Assembly (NCBI GenBank): GCA_963847445.1
Contig: CAWJZV010000042.1
Span: forward strand, 96,001 to 160,000
Source: an uncultured delta proteobacterium
GTDB lineage: Bacteria; Desulfobacterota; Binatia; UBA9968
Direction of reading: 5' to 3'
DNA: 64,000 nucleotides
Under the pieces are notes generated by a model. It ran no database searches, was not told the DNA's origin, and saw nothing but the letters and a program-made list of their open reading frames with translations. Shown here piece after piece: positions 32,073 through 44,493 of the stretch (position 1 is its first letter; the number at the start of each line of letters is the position of its first letter). Made by a program: the position numbers and the translations under genes.

Positions 32073-33016
32073 ATGAAGAGAGTCACGCTTTACAGTTCCA
32101 GCCGTTCATCGATTACCGGTCGGTCAGCGCCGACGGCCAATCCGCATCCCGCCACAGGTCCGGATCAATCCGGACAACGGTTCCTCGGCGAAAGTTCCGA
32201 GTCAAAAACCCCGCGCGCGCTGGCGCAACCTATGCGCGCGCTACGAACGCCCGCTTTGGCTGGCAGCCGCCGGGCTGCTCTCGTTACTGGTGGTTTTTAC
32301 CCACGGGTTATTCGCGCCGGCGCCGCGTCCGGTCACTCAGGAAGATATTAGCGCCGCAGTGCTGCACACGCTCGAGACGCAAGGTTCTGCCGTCCGCGGC
32401 GGCGAAAGCGTACGAGATCATTCGACCGTCGATCGTCCGGGTGCGTCGAATGGAACCGAACAAGAACGGCGAAGAGAGCGAAAAGGGCGTCGGCACCGGG
32501 GTCGTGATCGTCGACAAGGGCGTGATCTTGACCAATCTTCATGTGGTGTTCGGCGCCAAGCGGGTGCAAGTCGTGTTCGCTGACGGGCTCGAATCCGACG
32601 CCACGGTGACCGGTATGCAGCCTGAGCATGATTTGGCCGTGCTTCAGGCGCATAAGATTCCCGACGATTTGACCGCGGCCACCATGCGCTCCACCGCGGA
32701 CCTTGCCATAGGCGATCAGGTTGTCGCCGTCGGCTATCCTTTTGGTATAGGTCCTTCGGCGAGTGCTGGAGTAGTCTCCGGATTGCGCCGCGAGTTCTAC
32801 TCCCCGAATGGAAAACGCTTGCTGACCAATCTCATCCAGTTCGATGCTGCGGCTAATCCCGGCAGCTCCGGCGGGCCGCTGGTAACCGCCCGGGGCGAGG
32901 TTGTCGGCATCGTCACCGCGATTCTCAATCCGACGAACCAGCGTTTTTTTGTCGGCATTGGCTTTGCGGTGCCCATTGAAAATGCCGCAACCGCTGCCGG
33001 CATGCCGCCGTTCTAG
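32073..33016 (+). CDS. Trypsin-like (S1C/HtrA-type) serine protease without PDZ; frameshift near 32380
   Basis: GTGVV, ILTNLHVV, DLAVL, IQFDAAANPGSSGGPL. Confidence 0.87.
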
Positions 33017-33047
33017 CGTAATCGCTATCACCACCAAAAAGGGGCTT

Positions 33048-34061
33048 ATGGACAGAGAAACAAACCACAAAGAAGTTGCTTCGCTCATGGAGCGCATCCT
33101 CTACGAGGTGAAGAAGGTCATCGTCGGCCAGGATCGTTTCCTCGAGCGCGTGCTGGTGGCGGTACTGGCGCAGGGGCATCTGCTCGTCGAGGGCGTGCCG
33201 GGTCTCGCCAAGACGCTGACGGTCAAGACACTCGCCAGAACCATTCGCGGCTCGTTCAAACGAATTCAATTCACCCCGGATCTCGTGCCGGCGGATCTGG
33301 TGGGCACGCGCATCTACAATCAGAAGACCGGCGAATTTACCACTTCATTGGGACCGGTTTTTACAAATCTGCTGCTCGCCGATGAGATCAACCGAGCGCC
33401 GGCGAAAGTGCAAAGCGCGCTGCTCGAAGTGATGCAAGAACGCCAGGTTACCATCGCCGGTGAGAGCCATCGTGTGACCGAACCGTTCTTGGTGATGGCG
33501 ACGCAGAACCCCATCGAAACCGAAGGAACCTATCCGCTGCCCGAGGCGCAAGTGGACCGGTTCATGATGAAGGTGCTCGTCGGCTATCCCACCGAAGAAG
33601 AAGAGTTCGTCATCGTCGACCGAGTGACCGGCACTCCCAACGACGTCGTGCCGCTGGCCACCACTGAGCAACTGAGCGCGCTACAGCGCGAGTGTCAGCG
33701 CGTCTACGTCGATCCGGCGCTCAAGCAATATGCGGTGCGGCTCGCCTCGGCGACGCGCGACCCCGATCGCTTCGGGGTTGCCGAAGTGGCCAAGTACGTA
33801 TCTTTCGGCGTCAGCCCGCGCGCCTCGATTAATCTTATCGAGGGCGCGCGGGCGCTGGCGTTTCTGCGCGGGCGCACCTATGTTTTGTCAGACGACGTCA
33901 CAGATCTGGTTCTCGATGTATTTCGCCATCGGCTAGTGCTGACCTATGAAGCGCTGGCCGAAGGCATGACGCCGGATCACTTGATCCGCCGTATCATGGA
34001 GCACATACCGGCTCCCGAAAAGCCGTTGGAGACCCATGTTAGACTTGGCGCAAGCTTGTAA
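33048..34061 (+). CDS. MoxR family AAA+ ATPase
   Basis: EGVPGLAKT, RIQFTPDL, LADEINR, ATQNP, LPEAQVDRF, SPRA. Confidence 0.93.
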   Translation: MDRETNHKEVASLMERILYEVKKVIVGQDRFLERVLVAVLAQGHLLVEGVPGLAKTLTVKTLARTIRGSFKRIQFTPDLVPADLVGTRIYNQKTGEFTTSLGPVFTNLLLADEINRAPAKVQSALLEVMQERQVTIAGESHRVTEPFLVMATQNPIETEGTYPLPEAQVDRFMMKVLVGYPTEEEEFVIVDRVTGTPNDVVPLATTEQLSALQRECQRVYVDPALKQYAVRLASATRDPDRFGVAEVAKYVSFGVSPRASINLIEGARALAFLRGRTYVLSDDVTDLVLDVFRHRLVLTYEALAEGMTPDHLIRRIMEHIPAPEKPLETHVRLGASL

Positions 34062-34233
34062 AATTGGAGTGTTGGAGTGCTGGAATATTGCAGTGGTGGG
34101 TTCCATCCATCATCTCATAACTCGGCAACTCCAGTAAGCCAATGATCTGCCTTGAGCCAACGGAGATGCTTTTCAACGGCGTGAAATTTTTGAACGGTTT
34201 GACCCCTTTCCCCATGCTTGGAGCAATCAGCCG

Positions 34234-35197
34234 ATGAGTCCCGTCGCAAGAATCTGTTCATACGGCCGGCGCCGAGAACATCCTGCGCCGTCTCGAGTGG
34301 ACGGTGCTTCGACGCCTGGACGGGCTGCTGCATGGCAACTATCAGACCCTGTTTCGCGGTTTCGGGCTCGATCTCGCCGATCTGCGCGAGTATCAGTATT
34401 ACGACGACGTTCGCTACATCGATTGGAACGTCACCGCTCGTCTCCAGACGCCTTACGTGAGGGTCTACAACGAAGACCGGGAAGTGATGGCCTGGTTCCT
34501 GCTCGACTTGAGCCCGTCGGTGGACTTTGGCGCCCGCGTGAAGAAGCGTTCCGTCTCGACTGAATTCGTCACCGTGCTGGCGCGGCTCCTGACTCGTCAC
34601 GGCAATCGCGTCGGCGCGCTCTTCTACGGCGACAGCGTGGATACGGTGATTCCGGCGCGCAGCGGCCGGCGCCACGCGCTGCATATTTTGCACAGAATCC
34701 TTTCCCGGCCCGAGCCTTCGCGCTCGGCGGCGACCAACCTGGGCGATTTTCTCCAGACCGCTCTGCGCGTCATGCAAAGACGCTCGCTGGTTTTCGTCGT
34801 CTCCGATTTCATCAGCACGCCCGGCTGGGCCAAGCCGCTCGCGCATCTCGCGCAGCGCCACGAGATCATCGCCGTGCGGCTCTACGACCCATTGGAGATG
34901 GAGTTGCCCGACCTCGGACTGATCACGATGCGCGACGCCGAGACCGGCGAACAATTATTCGTCGACACCCACGATCGCACTTTCCGCAAGCGCTTCGCGG
35001 CTTTGGCCGAGCGCCGCGAGCAGGAGCTGCGTTCGGCGTTCACCCAGGCCGGCGTCGACGCGCTGGAGTTGTCGACCAACGATGATTTGGCAAATGCGAT
35101 TCTCCGCTTCGCCGATTTGCGCAAGCGGCGCAGCCAGTTGGCCGGCGGCGGCCTGCCGCAGCATTTAAGAGGGAGCCATGACGTTTCTCTGGCCTGA
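34234..35197 (+). CDS. DUF58 protein; N-terminal indel
   Basis: LREYQYYDDVRYIDWNVTAR, DLSPS, VVSDF. Confidence 0.88.
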
Positions 35198-36222
35198 GAT
35201 GCTCTGGCTGCTGCTGGTCGTGCCGGCGCTCGTGGCCGGCTATTTCTATCTATTGCGCCGCAAGCAGCAGAGCGCGCTCAAATATGCGAGTTTGAGCATG
35301 GTGAAAGAAGCGATGGGCGCGGGCCAGAGATTTCGCCGCCACATCCCGCCGCTGCTGTTTTTGCTGGCACTGATCGCAATGCTCGTCGCCGTCGCCCGTC
35401 CCGCCGCCGTGATCACCTTGCCGTCGCAACACCAAACCATCATCCTCGCCATGGACGTCTCCGGCAGCATGCGCGCCGTCGACGTGCAGCCCAATCGCAT
35501 TAGCGCGTCCCAGGCCGCGGCCAAAGCCTTCGTCGCCGAGCAACCCTCCAACGTACGCATCGGCGTGGTGTCCTTCGCCGGAACGGCGGCGGTCGTGCAG
35601 GTACCCACGCATAATCGCGAAGACATCATCGGCGCCATCGATCGCTTCCAACTGCAGCGCGGCACCGCCATCGGCAGCGGCATCATCGTTGCTCTCGCGA
35701 CCATTTTCCCCGATGCTGGTATTGACGTGAGCTCGTTGATCTACGGGCGTTACCCGCCGCGCGGCATGCCGCTCGACCAGACCGGCAAAGCGGAAAAGAA
35801 AGAGTTCAAACCGGTAGCCGCCCGGCTCCTACGCCTCTGCCGCGATCATTTTGCTTACCGATGGCCAGCGGACCACAGGCCCCGACTCCATGGAAGCGGC
35901 GCGGATGGCCGCCGACCGCGGCGTGCGCGTCTTCACCGTCGGATTCGGCACGAAAGGCGGCGAGACCATCGGCTATGAAGGCTGGTCCATGCGCGTGCGC
36001 CTCGACGAGGACACGCTCAAAGCGATCGCCGACTTGACCCGCGGCCAATATTTTTACGCCGGCACAGCTACCGATCTAAAAAAAGTCTACGAGTCCCTCA
36101 ACTCCAAATTCTTGCTCGAAAAGAAGGATATGGAAATCACCGCCCTCTTCGCCGCCGCAGCGGCAGTCACCGCGCTGGTCTCCGCGCTGCTCTCGCTGCT
36201 ATGGTTCAACCGAATCCTGTAG
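35178..36222 (+). CDS. VWA-domain membrane protein (BatA-like); frameshift near 35820
   Basis: FLWPEMLWLL, MIDAS DVSGSM, GTAIG, LLTDG, C-terminal TM. Confidence 0.88.
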
Positions 36223-36260
36223 GCCGCCGCGAAAAAATGTTATCGACGACCGTTTCTTAA

Positions 36261-36515
36261 CCCGACTTCGCGGATTCGCGGGGGTGAAAGCAGTTAAGTA
36301 GTTGAAAAATCAACCTGTGGGGTATCAAGGTCTGCACTACAGAGCCACAGCTGAGGTGACTTGGGTGGTGGTAATCTTTGGTGGTGGTTGCGCTGGGAGT
36401 TGCAGCTTGAGTTTGTCTAAGAGCAGTTGCAGTTCGGGCTCAGGCTGGGTGGTGCGGGTCAGGATGAGCTCGCGACCGTCGGTAGTAGGCAAGTGTACGT
36501 CGATCATCTGCATGG
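36261..36515 (-). mobile_element. IS1634-like transposase C-terminal remnant with IS end
   Basis: MIDVHLPTTDGRELILTRTTQPEPELQLLLDKLKLQLPAQPPPKI*; end CCCGACTT next to TTAA; family recalled, not searched. Confidence 0.65.
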
Positions 36516-36696
36516 CAGGAGGGCGGAAGTTGGGGTCAGGTCTAGATCGGTAGCGCAAGGCCGAGATAGAACAAGCGCCAAGCCGGTTATTGGTAATTTA
36601 AATGCTGTATTGAAAAAGAAAAAACTAGTCAAAGGCCACTCTTCGCTCACTAGGCATTGTTTGGACCATCAGTAAGTTGCAGTTTCTGATGAAATT

Positions 36697-36972
36697 ATGG
36701 CAAAGAAGAAGCGAAAATTGACGGCGCGCGAAAAGGCCGAAAAGGCACGGCGAAAGCGCGAGTTTATGACAATCTTTATTCACGGGAAGATGAAACGCGT
36801 CCGTAGACCGCAGCAGATTGACGGGATCGACGCAGACGAATTCATTCGGCGCAATGCAGATCCATTATGGCTGCATCAGAATGAAATGTGGGAGGACATT
36901 GAGGAACGCGGTGCGGGACTCGAAGAAAACTCGCGGCCCGTGAAAACTACACCGGACAAGGATCCATTTTGA
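36697..36972 (+). CDS. Small basic hypothetical protein
   Basis: Clean 91-aa ORF with FIRRNADPLWLHQNEMWE. Confidence 0.7.
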   Translation: MAKKKRKLTAREKAEKARRKREFMTIFIHGKMKRVRRPQQIDGIDADEFIRRNADPLWLHQNEMWEDIEERGAGLEENSRPVKTTPDKDPF

Positions 36973-37072
36973 TTTGAGCACCTGCGGGCTTAACCATGCT
37001 CGATCAGACGGCAGGCAAGCCGCCTTGGCCGGCGAAGTTCGAAGCGAGCAATAAAGGAGCAAACAAACGGTC

Positions 37073-37702
37073 ATGGCGGCAAAATCAATAAACTCCGGCC
37101 TCTGTGCGCTGTGCGGACAACGCGCGATGAAATCAAAAATGATCGCCCACTTGGAGGCGTGCGTCCCTGCGCACGACGAAACCGGCCCGCCACAGCCGCT
37201 GGTCATCCTCCGTTTCGGGCAAGCGGGTGAGCCTCGCTACTGGCTCATTATTGAGGCAAAGGCGGACGCACCATTGCGTTACGTGGATAAGCTGCTGCGC
37301 CAACTGTGGCTGGAATGCTGCGGACACATGAGCGCGTTCCGCATCGGCAGGCGCGAGCTGGCGATGAGCACCGCGACTGCCAACGCCTTCGCCAGCGCAG
37401 CGAGTAAGGTGGAATACGAGTACGACTTCGGCAGCACGACTGCGTTGACAGGCGAACTGGTAGGCAAGCGACATGGTTCGATCGGCCGCGCGTCGGTTCG
37501 GCTGCTCGCGCGCAATGAACCGCTCGTGTGGCCATGTGACGATTGCCAAGCCCCCGCGACAGTGGTGTGTCCATTTTGCATCGATTCCGGCGACGGGCTC
37601 TTCTGCGATGCCCATGCCGATGCGCACGAACATGCCGGCGAGGAAGTCTACCTTCCAGTGGTCAATTCACCGCGAATGGGCGTTTGCGGCTACACCGGCT
37701 GA
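37073..37702 (+). CDS. Zn-binding hypothetical protein, pRiA4b ORF-3-like core
   Basis: CALC, WLECCGHMSAF, YEYDFGSTT, CDDC/CPFC, NSPRMGVCGY; AAGGAG RBS. Confidence 0.7.
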   Translation: MAAKSINSGLCALCGQRAMKSKMIAHLEACVPAHDETGPPQPLVILRFGQAGEPRYWLIIEAKADAPLRYVDKLLRQLWLECCGHMSAFRIGRRELAMSTATANAFASAASKVEYEYDFGSTTALTGELVGKRHGSIGRASVRLLARNEPLVWPCDDCQAPATVVCPFCIDSGDGLFCDAHADAHEHAGEEVYLPVVNSPRMGVCGYTG

Positions 37703-37735
37703 GCGACGCGACAGGTTTCCCATTCGGATTCTGCA

Positions 37736-37856
37736 CCGCCTAACCTCGCCTTCGGTGAGGGGATAAAAGCACACCGAGTTGTCGTGCAGCTTTTGATTTC
37801 TGAATTCATCCTTCGGGTCATTGCGCGCTTTTAATATCGGTAAGTCGCCACCGAAT
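37736..37856 (-). repeat. Amidohydrolase 3'-tail copy 4 (most decayed)
   Basis: TCGCCTTCG..GAGTTGTCG..TTTCTGAATTCATC..TTGCGCGCTTTTAATATCGGTAAGTCGCCACCGAA aligns with 42060-42173. Confidence 0.75.
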
Positions 37857-37884
37857 TAATCGCTCAGTGAATTCAAAGGAGCGA

Positions 37885-37913
37885 TTGACAGAATTCTGTA
37901 CGTTATTTAAGAT
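37885..37913 (+). promoter_or_regulatory. Sigma70 promoter with overlapping operator palindrome for the TA operon
   Basis: TTGACA-N17-TAAGAT; palindrome ACAGAATTCTGT overlaps the -35. Confidence 0.65.
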
Positions 37914-37933
37914 ATCTCAATGGAGGCAAACCG

Positions 37934-38215
37934 ATGGCTATTTCATCAAAAGACATAATTTCGCTTACGCGTGCGCGAGCTACGCTGACGGAACTCTGTG
38001 CTCAAGTCCAACGCGAGCATGGCGAGAAAATTCTTACCAAGAATGGGGAAAGTTGCGCGGCCCTCATCGATGCCGAACGGTTGGATTATTATCACCGCCT
38101 GGAGCGCGAGCATATCCACATCAAGCTGCTTGAGGAGGCGGTTCGCGGGTTAGATGACGTGAACGCCGGAAGGGTTATCAGCGTCGCAAAACTGAAAGGC
38201 CGGTATGGCCGGTAA
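37934..38215 (+). CDS. Phd/YefM antitoxin
   Basis: ISLTRARATLTEL, ILTKNGESCAALID; GGAGG RBS. Confidence 0.85.
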   Translation: MAISSKDIISLTRARATLTELCAQVQREHGEKILTKNGESCAALIDAERLDYYHRLEREHIHIKLLEEAVRGLDDVNAGRVISVAKLKGRYGR

Positions 38216-38576
38216 GTCGCCGCTTTTCTTCACTGAGAACTTCACGGCAAATTTAGACGAGGTTCAAAGTTTTCTTTCTGTTGAGGGGCAGTCGGCATTT
38301 CAACGTTTGGTCAAGCGCTTATTCGAGGAAATGTGCCCGCAAGTGTCCCAATTCCCGTTGTCAGGCCGTTCATTCATAGCTCACCATGCTGGTTCGGCTG
38401 AAGCGAAGAAACTGATGGAACGTGTTCAGGATAGGCTTCGGACCGGAGACGATTTGCGCGAATTCGTGGTCGATGACTATGTCGTGCTTTACCTCGTCAG
38501 GCGAACGCGAATCTATTTCATAGCGATCAAACACCACCGGCAGCTATCGTTCGACCTACGCCGCTTCTGGTCGTGA
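38205..38576 (+). CDS. RelE/ParE-family toxin
   Basis: Overlaps the antitoxin; FTENFTANLDEV, FPLSGR, LREFVVDDYVVLY, IKHHRQ. Confidence 0.8.
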   Translation: MAGKSPLFFTENFTANLDEVQSFLSVEGQSAFQRLVKRLFEEMCPQVSQFPLSGRSFIAHHAGSAEAKKLMERVQDRLRTGDDLREFVVDDYVVLYLVRRTRIYFIAIKHHRQLSFDLRRFWS

Positions 38577-38593
38577 CCATTGACGCAGCCGCG

Positions 38594-38787
38594 TCAGCTT
38601 CCCTTCGCCTTCCGTGCCGCGGCGATGTCAGCTTTCGCTGCGCAGATGTAAGCGCACAGGGTTGTTGTGCGGTATGTTCTTTCTGAATTCATCGGTCAGG
38701 CGTTGGCGCGCTTTTAACATCGGCAGGTTGCCGCCGAATGGTGACGAAGATGTTGGCGCTTTCGAAGCAATGGCTGGGCGGATGCTC
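38594..38787 (-). repeat. Amidohydrolase 3'-tail copy 3 with internal deletion
   Basis: Ends AARKAKGS*; aligns with 42030-42175, then jumps to 42275-42322. Confidence 0.88.
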
Positions 38788-38840
38788 GTTTTATTCCTTC
38801 TACACTTTTGCACTGGGTGTGCTCTTTGGACTTTAGTAAA

Positions 38841-38960
38841 GAGCGCGGTTATGGCGGCTTGGGCATTGGGCTTACGCTGGCACGCAGAATCGTTGAGACT
38901 CACGACGGCCGAATCGAGGTAAATAGTGAAGGCGTCGGCAATGGCAGCGAATTAGATCGT
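38841..38960 (+). pseudogene. Histidine kinase HATPase_c C-terminal fragment
   Basis: GGLGIGLTLARRIVETHDGRIEVNSEGVGNGSE. Confidence 0.75.
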
Positions 38961-39119
38961 GCGGAGCGCTGAACAAATATCTGGCCGACGCCGCCAAAAC
39001 AGCCAGTCCGCATTCGACGCTTTGGTCGAAATAAGTGTTAGTTTTCGACGATATTCAATCCACTTTGAGGTATCGCGTCGTTTGGGAGGGAAATACCGAG
39101 GGAATTGAGGTTTTCATAC

Positions 39120-39135
39120 TGGTACGGACTTTGCT
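39120..39135 (+). promoter_or_regulatory. Sigma54 -24/-12 promoter
   Basis: TGGTAC-GGACT-TTGCT, 45 nt upstream of ATG 39181. Confidence 0.65.
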
Positions 39136-39180
39136 CATACAAAAGTCAGTCGGAACACTAAATTGGGAAGGGTGCAAACC

Positions 39181-39432
39181 ATGGGAAAAATTTCTAAGCT
39201 TCTTGTCATAGCATTTTTATTAAGTGTGGGTAGCGGATGCGCTACTCAGACACGGACCGTCACTACGGAGACCCGCGATGCGCCATCAAACACTGTGGTT
39301 GAAACCAAGACGGAAACAACCGAAACCGGGAGTGAATCCGGTGGCGTGTTGAGCAGCACTGTGGACGTTGTCGGCGAAGTTCTTTCGCTGCCATTTCGCG
39401 CGGTCGGTGCCTTGATCCGCGGAATTTTCTAA
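39181..39432 (+). CDS. Small Thr-rich lipoprotein
   Basis: Signal ending GSGC; C-terminal amphipathic VLSLPFRAVGALIRGIF. Confidence 0.75.
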   Translation: MGKISKLLVIAFLLSVGSGCATQTRTVTTETRDAPSNTVVETKTETTETGSESGGVLSSTVDVVGEVLSLPFRAVGALIRGIF

Positions 39433-39591
39433 TTCAGTTCGTGCGGGAGATCGTCACCGGGCTCTTGCTTTGGAACATGGAGATGACTTTATCTGGGTTT
39501 GGATTGGGCCACACGATGAATACGAACGGCTGATCAAGCAACAAAGTTAACGAAACGGCTTCTCGTCAATCTAGCTGTAATTTTACTTGCC

Positions 39592-39630
39592 AAAAAAAAC
39601 GGCGCAGTGAAAACTCACTGCGCCGTTTTT
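39592..39630. terminator. Bidirectional intrinsic terminator
   Basis: A8-CGGCGCAGTGA-AAAC-TCACTGCGCCG-T5. Confidence 0.85.
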
Positions 39631-39653
39631 AGCGTTAGTTTGAATATCTAGGT

Positions 39654-39846
39654 CTAATTTCCCCTCGCCTTCCGCGCCGCGGCGATGTCGCCTTCACTCA
39701 GGCGATAAAACCGTACCGAATTATCGCAGAGCATTTTCTTTTAGAATTCATCGGTCAGGTCTTTGCGCGCTTTTAACGTCGGCAGGTCGCCGCCGAATTG
39801 GTCGCGTTCGCGTTCGTTCGGATAATCGGCGCTCACATGACGACGA
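39654..39846 (-). repeat. Amidohydrolase 3'-tail copy 2 (least decayed)
   Basis: Ends AARKARGN*; close match to 42030-42225; AGA changed to in-frame TAA at 39741-39743. Confidence 0.92.
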
Positions 39847-39870
39847 CAGTCATTTACCATCATTAGACGT

Positions 39871-41571
39871 TCAAAAGTTATTCGCACCGGATTGTTCGTT
39901 GTCGCAGCGCTCGCCCGTGATCATGTCACGATTGGCCCCGCCCGGCGGCACCATGGGGTAAACATTTTCATCGCTGGCGATCGGCACGTTGATGAGGCAA
40001 GGGCCCGGATGGCGCAGCGCTTCGGCGATGGCCGCGGCCGGGTTCTCTGTTTGTCCGAGATCCACGGCGCGCACGCCAAATCCACGGGCGATCGCGGCGA
40101 AGTCCGTATGGCTTTTGAGGTGAGACGCATGATAGCGGCCGCCATAGAAGAGTTGTTGCTGCTGGCGCACCATTCCCAAGTGAGAGTTGTTGAGCAGGAT
40201 AATTTTGACCTCGACGCCTTCTTCCGCGGCGGTGGCAAGCTCGTGCAGGTTCATGAGCAAGCTGCCGTCGCCGCTGAAACAAGCGACCGTGCGGCCGGGA
40301 CAAGCGAGTGCCGCGCCGATGGCGGCGGGCAGGCCAAAGCCCATGGTGCCCAGGCCTCCCGAGGTCAGCCATTGGCGTGGCCGCTTGAATGGATAGGCTT
40401 GCGCCACCCACATCTGGTGCTGCCCCACGTCAGTCGTGACGATGCTGTCGTCGGGCAACAAAGAGGCGACGGTGCGGACAATGCCATAAGGCCGCAGAGG
40501 ATCGTCCGCGCCGGGCATCGCCAACGGGTAGCGCGCGCGAACCGTGTCAATATGTTGCTTCCACTGGCAACGCCTATTCGCCGCGATCATCGGGGTCAGA
40601 GCGGCCAGCGCATCACCGACATCGGCCACCAGCCCCAAGCTCGGCTGCTTGATCTTGCCCAGCTCGCTTGGATCGATGTCGATGTGGAGGATCTTGGCGC
40701 GGGGACAGAACTCCGCAGCTTTGCCAGTAGCTCGGTCGTCGAAGCGTACTCCGAGGCCGACCAGCAGATCGCATTCGTCGAGCAGCATGTTGGTAAAGCG
40801 TGCCGCATGCATGCCAACCATGCCAAGGAAGAGGGGATGGTCATGAGGCAACGCGCCGAGAGCGAGCAAAGTGGCGGCCGCCGGAATAGTAGCCTTTTCC
40901 ATCAAGCGACGCAGCTCTTTCGATGCGCCCGCCGCGATGATTCCGGCGCCGATCAGCAGTAGCGGTTTTTGCGCCGCATTGATCATGGCGGCAGCGCGAT
41001 GCAGATCGTCGGCGGGGCACAGCGGCGGCGGTTCGGCTCGTCCAGGCTCGGGAAGCAAATCCACGTCGACCAGTTCGGTCTGCACGTCCTTCGGAACGTC
41101 CACCAGCACGGGCCCCGGTCGGCCGGACGCCGCGATACGAAAGGCATCGGGAATGACGTCGAGCAATTCCAGGGCGGAACGGACCAAAACGTTATGTTTG
41201 GTAATCGGCAAGCTGAGCCCAAAGGTGTCGACCTCTTGGAAGGCGTCGGTGCCGATCATATTGCGGGGAACCTGGCCGGTAATCGCCACGAGCGGAATCG
41301 AATCCAACTTGGCATCAGCGATGGCTGTGAGCAGGTTGGTGGCGCCGGGCCCCGAGGTGGCAAGGCACACCGCCGGCCGGCCGGTGACCCGTGCCATTCC
41401 CTGTGCGATGAATCCCGCGCCTTGTTCGTGACGCGCCAATATATGGCGAATCGAACTGGCTTGCAGCGCATCGTACAGGGGTAGGTTCGCGCCGCCGGGG
41501 ATGCCGGCAATTGTTGTGACGCCTTGGCGCTCGAGGAGCGCGGTAATGAGTTGGGCACCTGTTAGTTGCAT
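39871..41571 (-). CDS. ilvB: Acetolactate synthase large subunit
   Basis: GIPGGANLPLYD, RHEQGA, TSGPGATN, RFDDRATG, DVGQHQMW, GLGTMGFGLPAA, GDGS..NN. Confidence 0.93.
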   Translation of the reverse strand: MQLTGAQLITALLERQGVTTIAGIPGGANLPLYDALQASSIRHILARHEQGAGFIAQGMARVTGRPAVCLATSGPGATNLLTAIADAKLDSIPLVAITGQVPRNMIGTDAFQEVDTFGLSLPITKHNVLVRSALELLDVIPDAFRIAASGRPGPVLVDVPKDVQTELVDVDLLPEPGRAEPPPLCPADDLHRAAAMINAAQKPLLLIGAGIIAAGASKELRRLMEKATIPAAATLLALGALPHDHPLFLGMVGMHAARFTNMLLDECDLLVGLGVRFDDRATGKAAEFCPRAKILHIDIDPSELGKIKQPSLGLVADVGDALAALTPMIAANRRCQWKQHIDTVRARYPLAMPGADDPLRPYGIVRTVASLLPDDSIVTTDVGQHQMWVAQAYPFKRPRQWLTSGGLGTMGFGLPAAIGAALACPGRTVACFSGDGSLLMNLHELATAAEEGVEVKIILLNNSHLGMVRQQQQLFYGGRYHASHLKSHTDFAAIARGFGVRAVDLGQTENPAAAIAEALRHPGPCLINVPIASDENVYPMVPPGGANRDMITGERCDNEQSGANNF

Positions 41572-41629
41572 GGGAGCTCTCCTATCTGGATTTGCTCCCT
41601 GCGCGGCTTACGGAGACGGTGGGTGGGCC

Positions 41630-41672
41630 AAAAAAACAAAACCCCCGTCGGCCATCGCGCCGGCAGGGGTTT
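41630..41672 (-). terminator. Attenuator terminator upstream of ilvB
   Basis: Minus strand AAACCCCTGCCGG..CCGACGGGGGTTTTGTTTTTTT. Confidence 0.85.
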
Positions 41673-41696
41673 AAAAAATTGTTTACAATTTTCCCG

Positions 41697-41795
41697 CTAC
41701 GACGCGAAAGCCTCGTTTACTAAGACGACTACGACTACGAAATGCAAAGGCCGCGCCTTTAACGCAAGCGGCTTGTAAGTCTCAGCGGTAAACAT
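41697..41795 (-). CDS. ilvB leader peptide (IvbL-like, 32 aa)
   Basis: MFTAETYKPLALKARPLHFVVVVVLVNEAFAS*; Val run precedes the terminator. Confidence 0.85.
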   Translation of the reverse strand: MFTAETYKPLALKARPLHFVVVVVLVNEAFAS

Positions 41796-42029
41796 GATTG
41801 GAAACTAGCATCAAATGGATCGCGCCGCAAATCGGAGTGATTTATTCGGGCTCAGCTCTTGTCCGGTAGTGTAAGTTCGAGACGGAACCAATCTCCACGA
41901 TCTCTATTGGCAGCCATGAAAAATAATGGAGACGGCGGCAGTGCAACGCTAATTCAATCTGTCTTGGCGATTCACGCGGTCAAGATGTAGGCGGCTGTCC
42001 CCGGTGGCTTGACCGCGCAAATCATCGAT

Positions 42030-43104
42030 TTACGTTTGCCTAGCTTTCCGTGCCGCGGCGATGTCGCCTTCGCTCAGGCGATAGAACCTTACCGGGTTGT
42101 CGCAGAGCATTTTCTTTCTGAATTCATCGGTCAGGTCTTTGCGCGCTTTTAGCGTCGGCAGGTCGCCGCCGAACTGGTCGCGTTCGCGCTCGTGGGGGAA
42201 GTCGGAGGCCCACATGATGACGTCGTCGCGCAGCAGTTTGACGACGTAGGGGGCGGTGCGTTCTTCGACTTCCATGGTGACGAAGATGTTGCCGCTTTCA
42301 AAAAAATGGCTCGGCGGATGCTTCAAGCTGCGGCGCCAGGCGGGCGGCGAATTTTTCGTAGTCCTCTTCCATGCGATCCATCATGAACGGCACCCAGCCG
42401 GCGCCGGCTTCCAAGTAGGCGACGCGCAGCTTGGGAAATTCCTGGAATACGCCTTGAAACATCATGTTGGTGATGTGGAGAAACAGGCCGACGGGATGCT
42501 CCAGCATATGGGCTTCGAGAAAACTGGCGACGCGGTCGAGGCCTAAGTTTTGGCTGACGCCGCCGTGGATCGTCAGCGGCACGTCTAATCTCTGCGCTTC
42601 GTCGTAGATCTCGTGAAACAGCGGCGAACCGTAGAGCGGCGTGCGGTTGTTGGTGGCCGACGGCAACAGGCCGGCGACAAAGCCAAGTTCTTTGACGCAG
42701 CGGCGCAGTTCCAGCGCGGCGGCTTTGGGATCTTGCGGCGCGAGCAGGGCGACGCCTTTCAAGCGCGGCGATTGACTCATGAAGCGATCGTAGAGCCAGT
42801 CGTTGTAGCCCTGCGCCAGCGCGGAAGCCCAGGCGGGCAGTTGGATCATGCCCAACGCCAGCGCCGAAGTCGGGTAGAGCACCGCCATGTCGATGCCATG
42901 CTCGTCTTGAAATTTTATCCAGCGCTCGGCGTCGGGATCTTCGCGCTTGCCTTTGCGCGCCAAGCCGCGCTGCCAGCCGTCGGCGTCGAACATCGGCCAA
43001 GTCGAGTGCCAGTTCATCTCGGCGAAGTTGCCTTTGATGTGGGCGAAGATGTCTTTGTGGTCTTCCATGATGTGGCCGTCGGCGTCGATGATGAATTCTG
43101 CCAT
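42030..43104 (-). CDS. Amidohydrolase_2 family protein; frameshift near 42325; parent of the tail array
   Basis: IDADGH, LTIHG, AYLEAGAGW, WASDFPH. Confidence 0.88.
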
Positions 43105-43159
43105 GTGTCGTTAGTCTCCTAAGGTTTCTGTTATGTCGGTGTAACGCGAAAATCCTGAT

Positions 43160-43246
43160 TCACCACGAAGGCACGAAGGACACGAAGTTCGGAGAAGTTT
43201 TCACTGTCTTTTACTTACCTTCGTGATCTTCGTGCCTTCGTGGTGA
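43160..43246. repeat. CACGAAG / CTTCGTG inverted-repeat family; also near 137-195, 4307-4470, 13755-14068, 48795-48872
   Basis: CACCACGAAGGCACGAAGGACACGAAG..CTTCGTGATCTTCGTGCCTTCGTGGTG. Confidence 0.75.
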
Positions 43247-43277
43247 GATGTCTCCTGTTCCGAATCGTTGGTTGAAC

Positions 43278-44298
43278 TCACTGCATGAAGATCTTCTGAT
43301 ATTCCTTCTTCTTGGTTTCGTAGTCTTCTTTGGTGAACTGGTACATCTGCACGAACTTGATCTTGTCGGCGTCTTGGAGCGGCGGATAGACGCCTTTGCG
43401 GTTGACGAATTCGCCGGTGTCGGCCTGAATTTTCATGCTCTCCTCGTCGAGAAAGAAATCGATAAAGGCTTTGCCGGCGTTGGGGCGCGGCGCTTTGGCG
43501 CCGATGTTGATGTACTGCCCGTCGCCGAGCATGTTGTAGTCGCGCATGTAGTCGAGATTGGCGCCTTGTTTGTTGTAGGTCAAAACGAAGCGCGCGAAGG
43601 TGATGCCGATGGGCGACTTCGCCGCTGCCGACTTTGTCGGCTGCCGGCACGATCGACTCGGCGAAGATCGGTTTGGCGGCGGCCAGATCGCGGATAAATT
43701 TTTCTGACTCGTTGCTTGGGCATGATTTTGTCCAGGCTGCGCGAGCCATTGGGTCGTCAGTGTGTGGTTCGACCGGGTGGGGCATGACCAATTTGCCGCG
43801 ATATTCCGGCTTGACGACGTCTTCGAGGGTCTTCGGCGATATTCGCCGGCCTTGATGCCGGCTTTGTTGAAGATCACGCCGTACAGGACGTTGCGATAGC
43901 GCGCGCCCAGAACAGGATCGATGGCTTCTTTGGCGAAGGCTTTGAGCGAGGGAGATTCGTATTTGCGCAATGACACCCTCGTTGGCCATCAGTCGCATGT
44001 GATCGCCGGTGATGGCGACCACGTCGAAGCCGGGCTTGCCGACGCGATGTTCGCTCAGCACGCGGTCGAGGACTTCGGTGGAGCCGCCGCGCCAGTACTC
44101 CATCTGGATGCCGGTCTTTGTTCTCGAAGGCGGCTTCTTCAGGGCGTCGGCGGTGAAGGTTTCCATGGAGGTGTAAAGAATGACCTTGCCGCCTTCTTTC
44201 TTCGCCGCGGCGATCGGACTGCGCCGATTGACCGAAGGCAGGTTGACTCGTTTGTTAGGACGAAGCAACCGATAATTAGCGCTAAAATCTGTTCGCAT
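43278..44298 (-). CDS. Extracellular solute-binding protein (Fe3+/thiamine-type); many frameshifts
   Basis: AAAKKEGGKVILYTS, PKTLED..YRGKL, APRPNAGKAFIDF. Confidence 0.8.
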
Positions 44299-44493
44299 CG
44301 AAAATTCCTTTCCCATGACAAAATCACTGCTCGACAGGGAGATTTATATGGTACGGGTCGCGGTGGAGTCAAGGTCGGGAAGTGGTTCATGTTTGGCTTC
44401 TGACGACGCGTTGCCGTAGGGGCAGGATCTTGGGTGTCTGCCCGCTCGGACGGGCGACCGCTCAGGGTCGACCCTACAGGAATCGCAACGGAA

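Follow-up and report, generated by a model that had tools for sequence, protein, structure and literature searches.

By what means do toxin-antitoxin modules of the chromosome, and small accessory genes in general, change place in the absence of an associated transposase or integrase? This has long been unclear, and the question is raised by a locus of an uncultured delta proteobacterium from soil (GTDB lineage Bacteria; Desulfobacterota; Binatia; UBA9968) in which the end of an amidohydrolase gene recurs three times downstream of the gene, with different cargo genes lying between the copies. The DNA analyzed, referred to below as the window, is a stretch of 64,000 nucleotides comprising positions 96,001 to 160,000 of contig CAWJZV010000042.1 (designated C42, 226 kb; G000:C42:96001-160000) of the NCBI GenBank assembly GCA_963847445.1, a genome of 7.19 Mb in 48 contigs designated G000. 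Coordinates given without a contig name refer to the window. The locus can be read as a record in which each insertion would have left a footprint, a dead gene end, and of which occupied, differently occupied, scarred and empty versions are found in relatives. With slightly better than even confidence, we regard the space behind the amidohydrolase gene as an insertion hot spot in a Candidatus Binatia genus, filled by host-recombination accretion without a dedicated recombinase and with long target duplication.

The array is anchored by a conserved Amidohydro_2 gene on the minus strand (42030-43104). Orthologs in the same genus display 88-96% amino acid identity in approximately 21 genomes, with open frames of 359-370 aa. 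In the window, the gene reads as two overlapping open reading frames (ORFs), 42298-43104 (268 aa) and 42030-42326 (98 aa), because of a 1-nt frame change near 42322; Pfam PF04909 is matched by both pieces (1.9e-21, 8.3e-08). The closest relative, G003, has identical letters at this point, and one short-read contig from each of the public runs X1 and X2, over 42054-42489, has one base fewer than the window. The frame change is, judging from these sequences, probably an assembly error or a strain variant.

The region 42025-42330 was compared to the entire 7.19-Mb genome using BLAST. The last 120-290 bp of the gene were found in three further downstream copies on the same strand, all of them on C42. 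Relative to the tail within the gene, named T0 (42030-42322) and used as the reference in BLAST, MAFFT and nhmmer, the first copy (T1) was aligned at 39663-39845 (88%, E 4.1e-59), the second (T2) at 38607-38742 (80%, E 3.3e-27) and, for a separate 5' piece, at 38738-38786 (90%, E 1.4e-11), and the third (T3) at 37746-37863 (77%, E 3.4e-19). The best match to the tail elsewhere in the genome is at paralog level (69%, E 2e-9). The same copies were recovered by a repeat search and a MAFFT alignment, and nhmmer placed their limits at 39660-39848 for T1, at 38600-38786 for T2, with approximately 100 nt missing inside, and at 37723-37863 for T3 (E 1.8e-31). The stop codons of T1 and T2, read from the sequence, end at 39654 and 38594. 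On the minus strand, T1 with its in-frame stop therefore spans 39654-39848 (columns 102-291 of the profile hidden Markov model, HMM), T2 spans 38594-38786, composed of the 5' piece 38738-38786 and a 3' piece 38594-38742, and T3, the most decayed copy, spans 37723-37863. The local alignment score of T2 is 78, against a shuffle maximum of 36. The repeat family is not dispersed, as close copies of the tail occur in the genome only in the array and no dispersed repeat lies within 36519-42079. An initial annotation, made from the letters of the window without database searches, had described four copies in the same orientation, the secondary ones at 39654-39846, 38594-38787 and 37736-37856, near the nhmmer limits, together with the C-terminal alleles AARKARQT, AARKARGN and AARKAKGS, each followed by a stop codon; the copies were recovered by BLAST and the alleles by reading of the sequence.

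A common 5' limit of T0, T1 and T2 at approximately 42322 was considered and dropped, since the alignment upstream of T1 scored 22 against a shuffle maximum of 30 and since the frame change located there is probably a 1-nt error or variant; only the limit of T2 at 42322 was kept. An intrinsic terminator is found behind T1 (39590-39633, minus strand; 12-bp stem and U run, -29.4 kcal/mol, z -7.6). T1 and this terminator are collinear with the intact gene end and terminator of the relative G014, and the terminator is probably the original one of the gene. At T0 itself, the last approximately 15 nt are derived relative to the clade consensus and homology to G003 stops at 42043; around the stop codon the two genomes differ, with 62 nt in G000 versus 188 nt in G003. 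A spacer (41908-42029, minus strand) separates the gene stop from the first cargo: homology to the loci of this cargo in other genomes starts at 41907 (G004) or at 41834-41836 (G045, G018), and G003 differs from the window between 42042 and 41981.

The first cargo, between T0 and T1, is an ilvB-like gene for an acetolactate synthase large subunit of 566 aa (39871-41571, minus strand; Pfam TPP_enzyme_N, _M and _C). It is preceded by a leader/attenuator (41633-41834, minus strand) in which a Val-rich leader ORF of 32 aa (41697-41795; translation MFTAETYKPLALKARPLHFVVVVVLVNEAFAS, with five valines in a row) is followed by a terminator hairpin (-28.2 kcal/mol, z -2.3). The leader has been kept together with the gene in G004, G045 and G018. 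At the same locus, the gene is present in G003 with 97% identity. In G004 (95%), it lies on the same contig as the amidohydrolase gene, 185 kb from it and 2.7 kb from the same flank of von Willebrand factor A (vWA) type, and in G045 (82%) and G018 (78%) it is found in a third context. The similarity to the G004 copy breaks off within the 3' end of ilvB, precisely at 10 nt that are also present in the tail. This ilvB with its Val-rich leader is an accessory paralog, present in five of the 31 genus genomes in three contexts and devoid of an adjoining ilvN in the window. A copy of approximately 70% identity, presumably the regular ilvB, is located at G000:C15:266821-267027, and every genome searched also has such a copy elsewhere.

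The second cargo, between T1 and T2, is composed of two parts on the plus strand. The first (39120-39432) associates a sigma54-type motif at 39120-39135 with an ORF of 89 aa at 39163-39432. TGGYAC-N5-TTGCW has its sole match in the window at this position, 0.09 being expected by chance, and the ORF, to which no family was assigned in the Pfam scan, encodes a putative lipoprotein as judged by eye from its N-terminus and lipobox. The second part (38808-38972) is the C-terminal fragment of a histidine kinase, reduced to its last 54 residues (HATPase_c 7.6e-06, profile positions 66-100 of 111) and cut off approximately 20 nt from the 5' edge of T2. The third cargo, between T2 and T3, is a toxin-antitoxin pair (37885-38576, plus strand) with a sigma70-like promoter detected by promoter scan at 37885-37913. 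Its Phd-like antitoxin (37934-38215) reaches 26.2 bits with PhdYeFM, below the Pfam cut-off of 29.8, and its toxin of ParE/RelE fold (38205-38576) reaches 35.5 bits with ParE_toxin, above the cut-off of 23; the two genes overlap by 11 nt. With the antitoxin first, small overlapping genes and matching families, the predicted pair fits the type II Phd/YefM-ParE/RelE arrangement. The cargos occur in both orientations and possess their own promoters. The GC content is 49-55% across 37.6-39.8 kb and 62-64% in ilvB and the flanks. Pfam, motif and fold scans confirmed the cargo contents initially proposed, namely ilvB with an attenuator, a kinase fragment with a sigma54 lipoprotein gene and a terminator, and a Phd-toxin pair with its promoter.

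The array had also been described as integrase-free, and this was upheld. Seven matches to PF00589 (Phage_integrase) and five to rve were obtained in the genome, none of them on C42, and PF00239 (resolvase/serine recombinase) is without a match in the whole genome. No mobility gene was detected by Pfam in the cargo ORFs, nor any PF00589, PF00239 or rve match on C42, other transposase families not having been searched. Likewise, no recombinase was found in the Pfam scan of 20 cargo ORFs extracted from the loci of relatives, and PF00589 has no match on the array contigs of G014, G015, G021 and G006, the nearest one in G003 being 206 kb away. A diversity-generating retroelement, whose variable repeat likewise sits at a gene 3' end, was also considered and rejected: the mismatches between T0 and T1-T3 are of all kinds and not confined to adenines. 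The Pfam scan returned no ORF resembling a reverse transcriptase among the cargo ORFs, although no search aimed at reverse transcriptase families was made.

Support for the junctions was obtained from contigs of public runs rather than from raw reads. X1 and X2 belong to study P1 and may be the source of genome G000, and are not independent of it; X5 belongs to another study, P2. The junctions from the kinase fragment through T2 to the toxin-antitoxin pair are bridged by contigs of X1 and X2, the junction between ilvB and T1 by contigs of X1, X2 and X5, and the lipoprotein stretch is covered up to the stop of T1 by a contig of X1. In addition, one X5 contig joins the toxin-antitoxin cassette and the 3' part of T2 to T0-like sequence (joint 38634>42086), and a form in which the gene tail directly adjoins the toxin-antitoxin pair therefore exists in nature. 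The public contigs end inside the repeats, as unitigs do. Among the contigs listed, none spans the whole array; this was counted as evidence neither for nor against misassembly, as were the stretches of the window left uncovered.

The same gene end is followed by other cargos in the relatives. A search with the tail DNA matched 26 of the 31 genus genomes, and extra tails behind the ortholog, on the same contig, are present in six of them: G000 (3), G021 (2), G015 (2), G006 (2), G014 (1) and the unpublished G005 (1). A profile search returned the same extra copies and limits. In the records of named species, extra tails were found at five of the 32 loci offering at least 1 kb downstream (40 having been scanned), probably in the same genomes as those of the DNA search. 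The cargo consists of MazF and RHH followed by Phd-ParE in G015, where an unknown ORF and an Mrr nuclease come behind the last tail; of Phd-ParE followed by VapB-VapC (PIN) in G021; of an HTH_3 protein and an ORF of 74 aa in G014; and of an unknown ORF followed by DoxX in G006. Inserts without detectable tails occupy the same spot in other genomes: a TIR-DnaB_C fusion of 448 aa, a candidate defence gene, in G007 (L023:3692-5038), malate synthase and isocitrate lyase in G008, a cyclase in G004 and a protein of metallo-beta-lactamase fold in G018. An empty site is provided by G012, in which approximately 60-80 nt separate the gene from the next conserved block, compared with 3.77 kb between the same two flanks in G015. 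In the clade of the window itself, characterized by the vWA-cluster flank, no fully empty genome was found. In one relative, a tail-like fragment (L072:3312-3486, HMM columns 74-251, same strand) is located approximately 2.5 kb upstream of the amidohydrolase gene.

At this locus, G021 (82%), G015 (81%) and G005 (70%) carry the Phd-ParE cassette, which is reduced to a remnant of 240 nt in G018 and in G019 persists as a scar of 15 nt, identical to the ParE end, right behind the stop codon. The cassette is therefore old at the locus and many losses of it have occurred. It is separated from the stop codon by approximately 17-22 nt, the same distance in three genomes. The conserved ends of the three Phd-ParE copies, corresponding to the gene end and the promoter, were examined as possible defined element ends and discarded, selection alone being sufficient to explain them. 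Common to the window and its closest relative, G003 (93-97% to the window in this region), are T0, the ilvB cargo, 27 nt from the start of T1 and a piece of 67 nt of the kinase fragment (84%). G003 is devoid of the lipoprotein gene, T2, Phd-ParE and T3, and carries other genes instead, one of them common to G014, before the vWA-type flank; its c61 ORF matches no Pfam family.

The limits and alleles of the tails give some access to the history of the array. The 10 secondary tails start at HMM columns 71, 102, 105, 141, 143, 146, 153, 156, 163 and 173, and nine of the 10 extend to the stop codon (columns 287-292). The repeats are 110-292 bp long, and 118-195 bp in the array of the window. Inserts start either at the stop codon or after the terminator, and the last tail of G015 and of G006 continues to resemble T0 through the terminator, for approximately 90 nt more. 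Every secondary tail is most like a T0 of its own genome or clade: in a ranking of 15 by likeness, the T0 of the same genome came first for six of the 10 tails and in second to fourth place for the other four. Between genomes, the tails around Phd-ParE resemble one another at 0.61-0.77, each being closer to its own clade's T0; the tails therefore do not travel far with the cargo.

A polarity test was applied to the positions differing between T0 and a secondary tail, by recording which of the two keeps the consensus of five related T0s. In G000, T0 keeps the consensus at 15 positions and T1 at 10, five of these 10 being in the last 15 columns, where T2 and T3 also display the consensus; more precisely, T0 is derived at columns 276-290 and T1-T3 keep the clade consensus there. 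In G015, with 19 differing columns, T0 keeps the consensus at four and the distal tail, T2, at 11. The corresponding counts are 10 and 9 for T0 and T1 of G021, and 8 and 1 for those of G014. As dead copies are expected to diverge faster than coding ones, a surplus of derived positions in T0 argues that the gene-borne tail, or its very end, has been replaced. These are signs, read from a limited alignment, that the gene-proximal tail may be the incoming, newer allele and the displaced tail the old one.

The initial annotation had proposed that decay increases with distance from the gene and that the array is a time-ordered, integron-like record of serial homology-driven capture. The first proposal is valid for G000, where likeness to T0 on the HMM columns drops from 0.87 (T1) to 0.78 (T2) and 0.72 (T3), and for G021 (0.90, 0.86), but in G015 likeness rises with distance (0.73, 0.86) and in G006 it hardly changes (0.82, 0.80). 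As the gradient holds in two of the four multi-tail arrays, and as G003 has the proximal ilvB without the distal block of T2, Phd-ParE and T3, the notion of a time-ordered record is overstated and the history of the array, as reconstructed from the tails, is not a simple stack. The qualifier integron-like goes too far as well, no IntI, attC-type folding or fixed repeat unit having been found. Serial capture as such, integrase-free, linked to homology and pushing the old tail downstream, is retained in view of the polarity and of the collinearity with G014.

A scan of the genome for similar duplications, which had been suggested from the outset, was carried out by self-BLAST of G000, keeping direct repeats of 70-399 bp with at least 75% identity and less than 8 kb apart; longer pairs were set aside. 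It yielded 92 local direct-repeat sets, 39 of which were local-only after a copy-number filter removing dispersed repeats. These 39 sets are mixed, some of them probably representing tRNA genes or neighbouring paralogs. The ORF-based classing of repeats as gene tails is noisy in this GC-rich genome and serves as a lead only. A cargo scan covered 30 ORFs from 18 of 20 loci. Two clean toxin-antitoxin insertions with empty sites in relatives were obtained. At C30:533016-534320, the initial 230 bp of a gene are present on both sides of an ORF of 88 aa and a PIN_3 protein; the complete gene abuts the cargo, the cut-off copy keeps the native upstream sequence, and G014 and G021 have one copy and no insert. 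At C30:569805-570666, a gene tail present in two 94-bp copies encloses Phd and PIN, and G007 has one copy directly before the distal sequence, without cargo. A CopG/BrnA-like antitoxin is found in a further local-only set (C48:64017-64655). The loci C24:29607 (PIN), C48:109219 (MazF) and C27:46443 (DUF2442) were not counted, being flanked by dispersed repeats and not by target duplications.

Such dispersed repeats are small and abundant in the genus, are often located beside inserted cassettes and can mimic target duplications. A unit of 69 bp (93-100%) occurs in dozens of places in G003, G007, G014 and G021 (L045:2815-2883, corresponding to G000:C30:534514-534582), another of 42 bp is 95-100% conserved (L044:1190-1231), and at L060:1515-1769 (G000:C13:5514-5768) a free-standing ORF of 84 aa with a GIY-YIG nuclease domain lies between two dispersed repeats of 100 bp.

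The mechanism that we favour for the accretion can be summarized as follows. Accessory modules, mostly type II toxin-antitoxin pairs, would enter one after another behind the amidohydrolase gene. At each entry the gene would retain a complete 3' end and a truncated dead copy of 110-290 bp would stay beyond the insert, so that repeated entries would yield an alternation of tails and cargos. The donor may be DNA of a related strain in which the gene end stands beside the cargo, either circularized or bridging two sister chromosomes, and the most likely route of integration would be a single RecA-type (Campbell-type) crossover in the gene tail. This crossover would bring in a new proximal tail and push the old tail, together with the old terminator, downstream. 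The far junction, from the cargo to the 5' edge of the old tail, would be illegitimate and could therefore cut genes such as the kinase. First captures of a cargo that was never beside the gene, ilvB for example, would need end joining at both ends. The direct repeats would later permit deletion, shuffling and gene conversion, losses that toxin-antitoxin cargo would resist by addiction; the dominance of toxin-antitoxin pairs between tails may thus reflect survivorship.

Homology-driven entry is favoured because of the tail polarity, the native terminator behind T1, the joint between tail and ParE shared by three genomes and the X5 variant in which gene tail and toxin-antitoxin pair are adjacent. 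The cut kinase near T2 and the 10-nt microhomology between ilvB and tail are, at the level of sequence, signs of illegitimate joining. Two Ku and two ComEC homologs are present in the genome. To our knowledge, transformation has not been reported in Binatia. A number of points nevertheless weigh against host-recombination accretion. The polarity counts are based on 110-220 columns and a handful of sites. Neither a circular molecule of tail and cargo nor a crossover has been seen, contigs alone having been available. No donor is known with ilvB beside the amidohydrolase gene, ilvB being elsewhere in G004, G045 and G018, and a tail crossover alone therefore cannot explain the first capture of ilvB. 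The repeated use of one gene end in six species looks targeted, and the starts of six of the 10 secondary tails, or the points where these resume after a deletion, cluster at columns ~132-163, as a site-specific system would produce. The local type of the tails around Phd-ParE could equally well result from gene conversion or from pure target duplication through end joining. Finally, the sets of the genome-wide scan are of mixed nature: many of the local repeats do not correspond to gene ends, and toxin-antitoxin cargo was shown for only three of the 39 local-only sets.

A bolder version, which we consider possible but would not bet on, is a recombinase-free counterpart of the integron. The 3' end of a housekeeping gene would act as attachment site by homology. 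Units of tail plus cargo would circulate among related strains, in circular form or as linear fragments, and home to this gene end by means of host RecA and Ku functions, addictive cargo locking the units in place against loss through recombination between tails. The most conserved blocks of the tail (HMM columns ~146-165 and 255-280) would then be preferred crossover points, which would explain the clustered limits.

Pure target duplication is the next rival of host-recombination accretion and appears rather improbable to us. It supposes that tail-less foreign DNA was ligated by Ku/LigD between staggered breaks or breaks on sister chromosomes, so that both tails are the recipient's own. Such an origin agrees with the local clade type of both tails around the shared Phd-ParE, with the two Ku genes, with the ilvB cargo for which no tail-adjacent donor is known, and with the severed kinase gene and the microhomology at the ilvB end. 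It also accommodates duplications at gene 5' ends and fits the descriptive class published by Furuta, Abe & Kobayashi in 2010 (PMC2853133). End joining nevertheless predicts that the gene-borne copy is the nearest to the consensus, but in G015 it is the distal tail (11 versus 4 columns), and in G000 the end of T0 is derived. The constant distance of approximately 17-22 nt between stop codon and Phd-ParE in three genomes points in addition to a shared junction and not to independent random breaks.

Decayed site-specific accretion, in which small elements carry an att site copying the gene 3' end and the tyrosine recombinase acts in trans or has been lost, is considered unlikely. Tandem accretion at gene 3' ends is a well-known phenomenon, and the use of a single gene end in six species, the termination of nearly all tails at the stop, the clustering of six of the 10 starts and the PF00589 matches present elsewhere in the genome speak in favour of this rival. 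Against this stand the lack of any integrase on the 226-kb contig, on the array contigs of four relatives, within 200 kb in G003 or among the 20 cargo ORFs of relatives, the range of repeat lengths (110-292 bp) and the choice of insertion point, at the stop or after the terminator. No tail was found on a separate element in the 31 genomes, except for a stray match of 121 bp on a small contig of G022, and unrelated sequences have been duplicated in the same manner at other loci.

The tails could also be what is left of full-length tandem paralogs or duplicates after loss of their 5' parts. The gene belongs to a very large family (at least 63 scored matches in the genome), and the detached 5' piece of T2 reaches 292 nt before the stop. 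This explanation is nevertheless very improbable: tails are 72-92% like the T0 of their own clade versus 69% for the best paralog, no second full-length tandem copy is found behind the gene in 40 related loci, and empty sites exist. Comparison of the locus in relatives, which had been named at the start as a check, showed variable cargo and no paralog remnants.

An integron, or a cluster of attC sites lacking an integron-integrase (CALIN), with the tails as attC sites, deserves hardly any credence: toxin-antitoxin cassettes do occur in chromosomal integrons, and cassettes of 0.7-2.2 kb with several such pairs and lineage-specific repeats recall them, but there is no IntI-type gene nearby, single-stranded DNA of the tails folds no better than shuffles (z -0.5 to -1.75; both strands for T0 and T1, minus strand for T2 and T3), Rfam has no match in 35500-43500, the repeat is coding sequence of the neighbouring gene, and the cargos have their own promoters in both orientations. 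Equally little weight is given to the idea that strain variants were chimerically joined during assembly. In its favour, the metagenome-assembled genome has 6.9% contamination and a likely 1-nt error in the gene, and public contigs break inside repeats. However, the cargo-to-tail junctions tested are unique and are all contained in public-run contigs, the one between ilvB and T1 also in a contig of X5, from another study; arrays are present in six genomes; and the copies (77-88%) are too unlike for an assembler to collapse or chain.

The surroundings of the array remain to be described. Beyond T3, the conserved flank is preceded by a variable stretch (36258-37702), in place of which G003 and G014 have other genes. 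The stretch includes an ORF of 209 aa on the plus strand (37073-37702), Zn-ribbon-like with Cys-rich ends, weakly matched by DUF7455 below the cut-off and absent from the same two genomes, and an ORF of 91 aa, also on the plus strand (36697-36972). A dispersed repeat of approximately 180-260 bp (36258-36518), with two other genome copies (C14 and C34, ~82%), lies exactly where the variable stretch meets the vWA-type flank. Synteny resumes in this far flank (33003-36227), with vWA, DUF58-like and MoxR-like genes identified by sequence and 96-97% identity to G014 and G003. On the other side, just upstream of the amidohydrolase gene, a palindromic element of CTTCGTG-type units (43129-43270) contains an inverted repeat (43160-43187/43219-43246, 93% complementary), and has more than 100 partial copies in the genome. 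Its contig depth is very high in each of the four runs, and it resembles a dispersed repeat of the repetitive extragenic palindromic or miniature inverted-repeat transposable element type. The solute-binding protein gene upstream of the amidohydrolase gene (43201-44316) is split into two overlapping frames (371 aa and 232 aa), its orthologs in relatives being read as one ORF of 335-379 aa. Either a second frame change or a second assembly error accounts for the split. For annotation purposes, the tails themselves produce short spurious ORFs and dead gene ends resembling pseudogenes.

How does the array compare to known systems? Tandem accretion of integrative and cis-mobilizable elements at a gene 3' end is known from the ICESt1/ICESt3 family at fda. 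As in such arrays of integrative and conjugative elements (ICE) and cis-mobilizable elements (CIME), direct repeats of a gene 3' end part the inserts, the gene is kept intact and old ends are displaced downstream; some ICE/CIME units are likewise without integrase. In those arrays, nevertheless, the att core is short and fixed, and at least one unit encodes the tyrosine or serine recombinase required, whereas no recombinase is linked to the array in six genomes here, the repeat limits vary and the units are of 0.7-2.2 kb. Integrons and attC clusters share with this locus the serial deposition of small cassettes in one place, the frequency of toxin-antitoxin pairs and the lineage-specific repeats. 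Unlike them, the array has no IntI, no attC hairpin and no attI, the position of which is occupied by a coding gene end; its repeats are coding sequence of the anchor gene and its cassettes, in either orientation, have their own promoters.

Insertion with long target duplication was reportedly described for restriction-modification systems by Nobusato et al. in 2000 (Gene 259:99). In Furuta, Abe & Kobayashi 2010 (PMC2853133), restriction-modification systems of several bacteria are described to insert with long, variable target duplications and without mobility genes; a precedent of the same kind is given by Mruk & Kobayashi 2014 (PMC3874152). The initial annotation, correct as to the anatomy of the array, had overlooked this class. 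The features used in PMC2853133 to recognize such insertions are found here: flanking direct repeats of more than 30 bp, a related genome with the site empty between the same flanks, an insert below 20 kb (0.7-2.2 kb) and a repeat that is not dispersed. The likeness extends to small addictive modules, to the lack of a mobility gene and to direct repeats (46 to ~420 bp there) of variable length that are single-copy at the empty site, and in the Haemophilus cases the repeat overlaps the 3' end of a neighbouring gene. In contrast to those cases, the cargo here consists of type II toxin-antitoxin pairs and ordinary genes instead of restriction-modification systems, serial events have taken place at one gene end, with up to four tails and in several species, and the tail polarity points to homology-driven entry where PMC2853133 leaves the mechanism open. 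No description of such insertion for toxin-antitoxin pairs, or of serial arrays, was found in full-text searches of the literature, although Supplementary Figure 7 and the tables of PMC2853133 may hold closer cases.

Host routes that integrate DNA with homology at one end, or that make repeat-bordered duplications, without any mobile-element enzyme are documented in Johnston et al. 2013 (PMC3784515), where transformation makes duplications by interchromatid integration as shown in the laboratory, and reportedly in PMC3240628, on homology-facilitated illegitimate recombination. In those studies, the outcomes are laboratory duplications of 100-900 kb or replacements with deletion, whereas repeats of 0.1-0.3 kb flank natural cassettes in the present case. 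The locus ties the mobility of toxin-antitoxin modules to insertion with long target duplication, and the polarity of its tails hints at which copy is the incoming one. If the same were true at other gene-end duplications, a general and overlooked route would be at hand for chromosomal toxin-antitoxin and defence genes. Compared to the known insertion class, what is new here is the formation of serial arrays, the toxin-antitoxin cargo and the recurrence across species.

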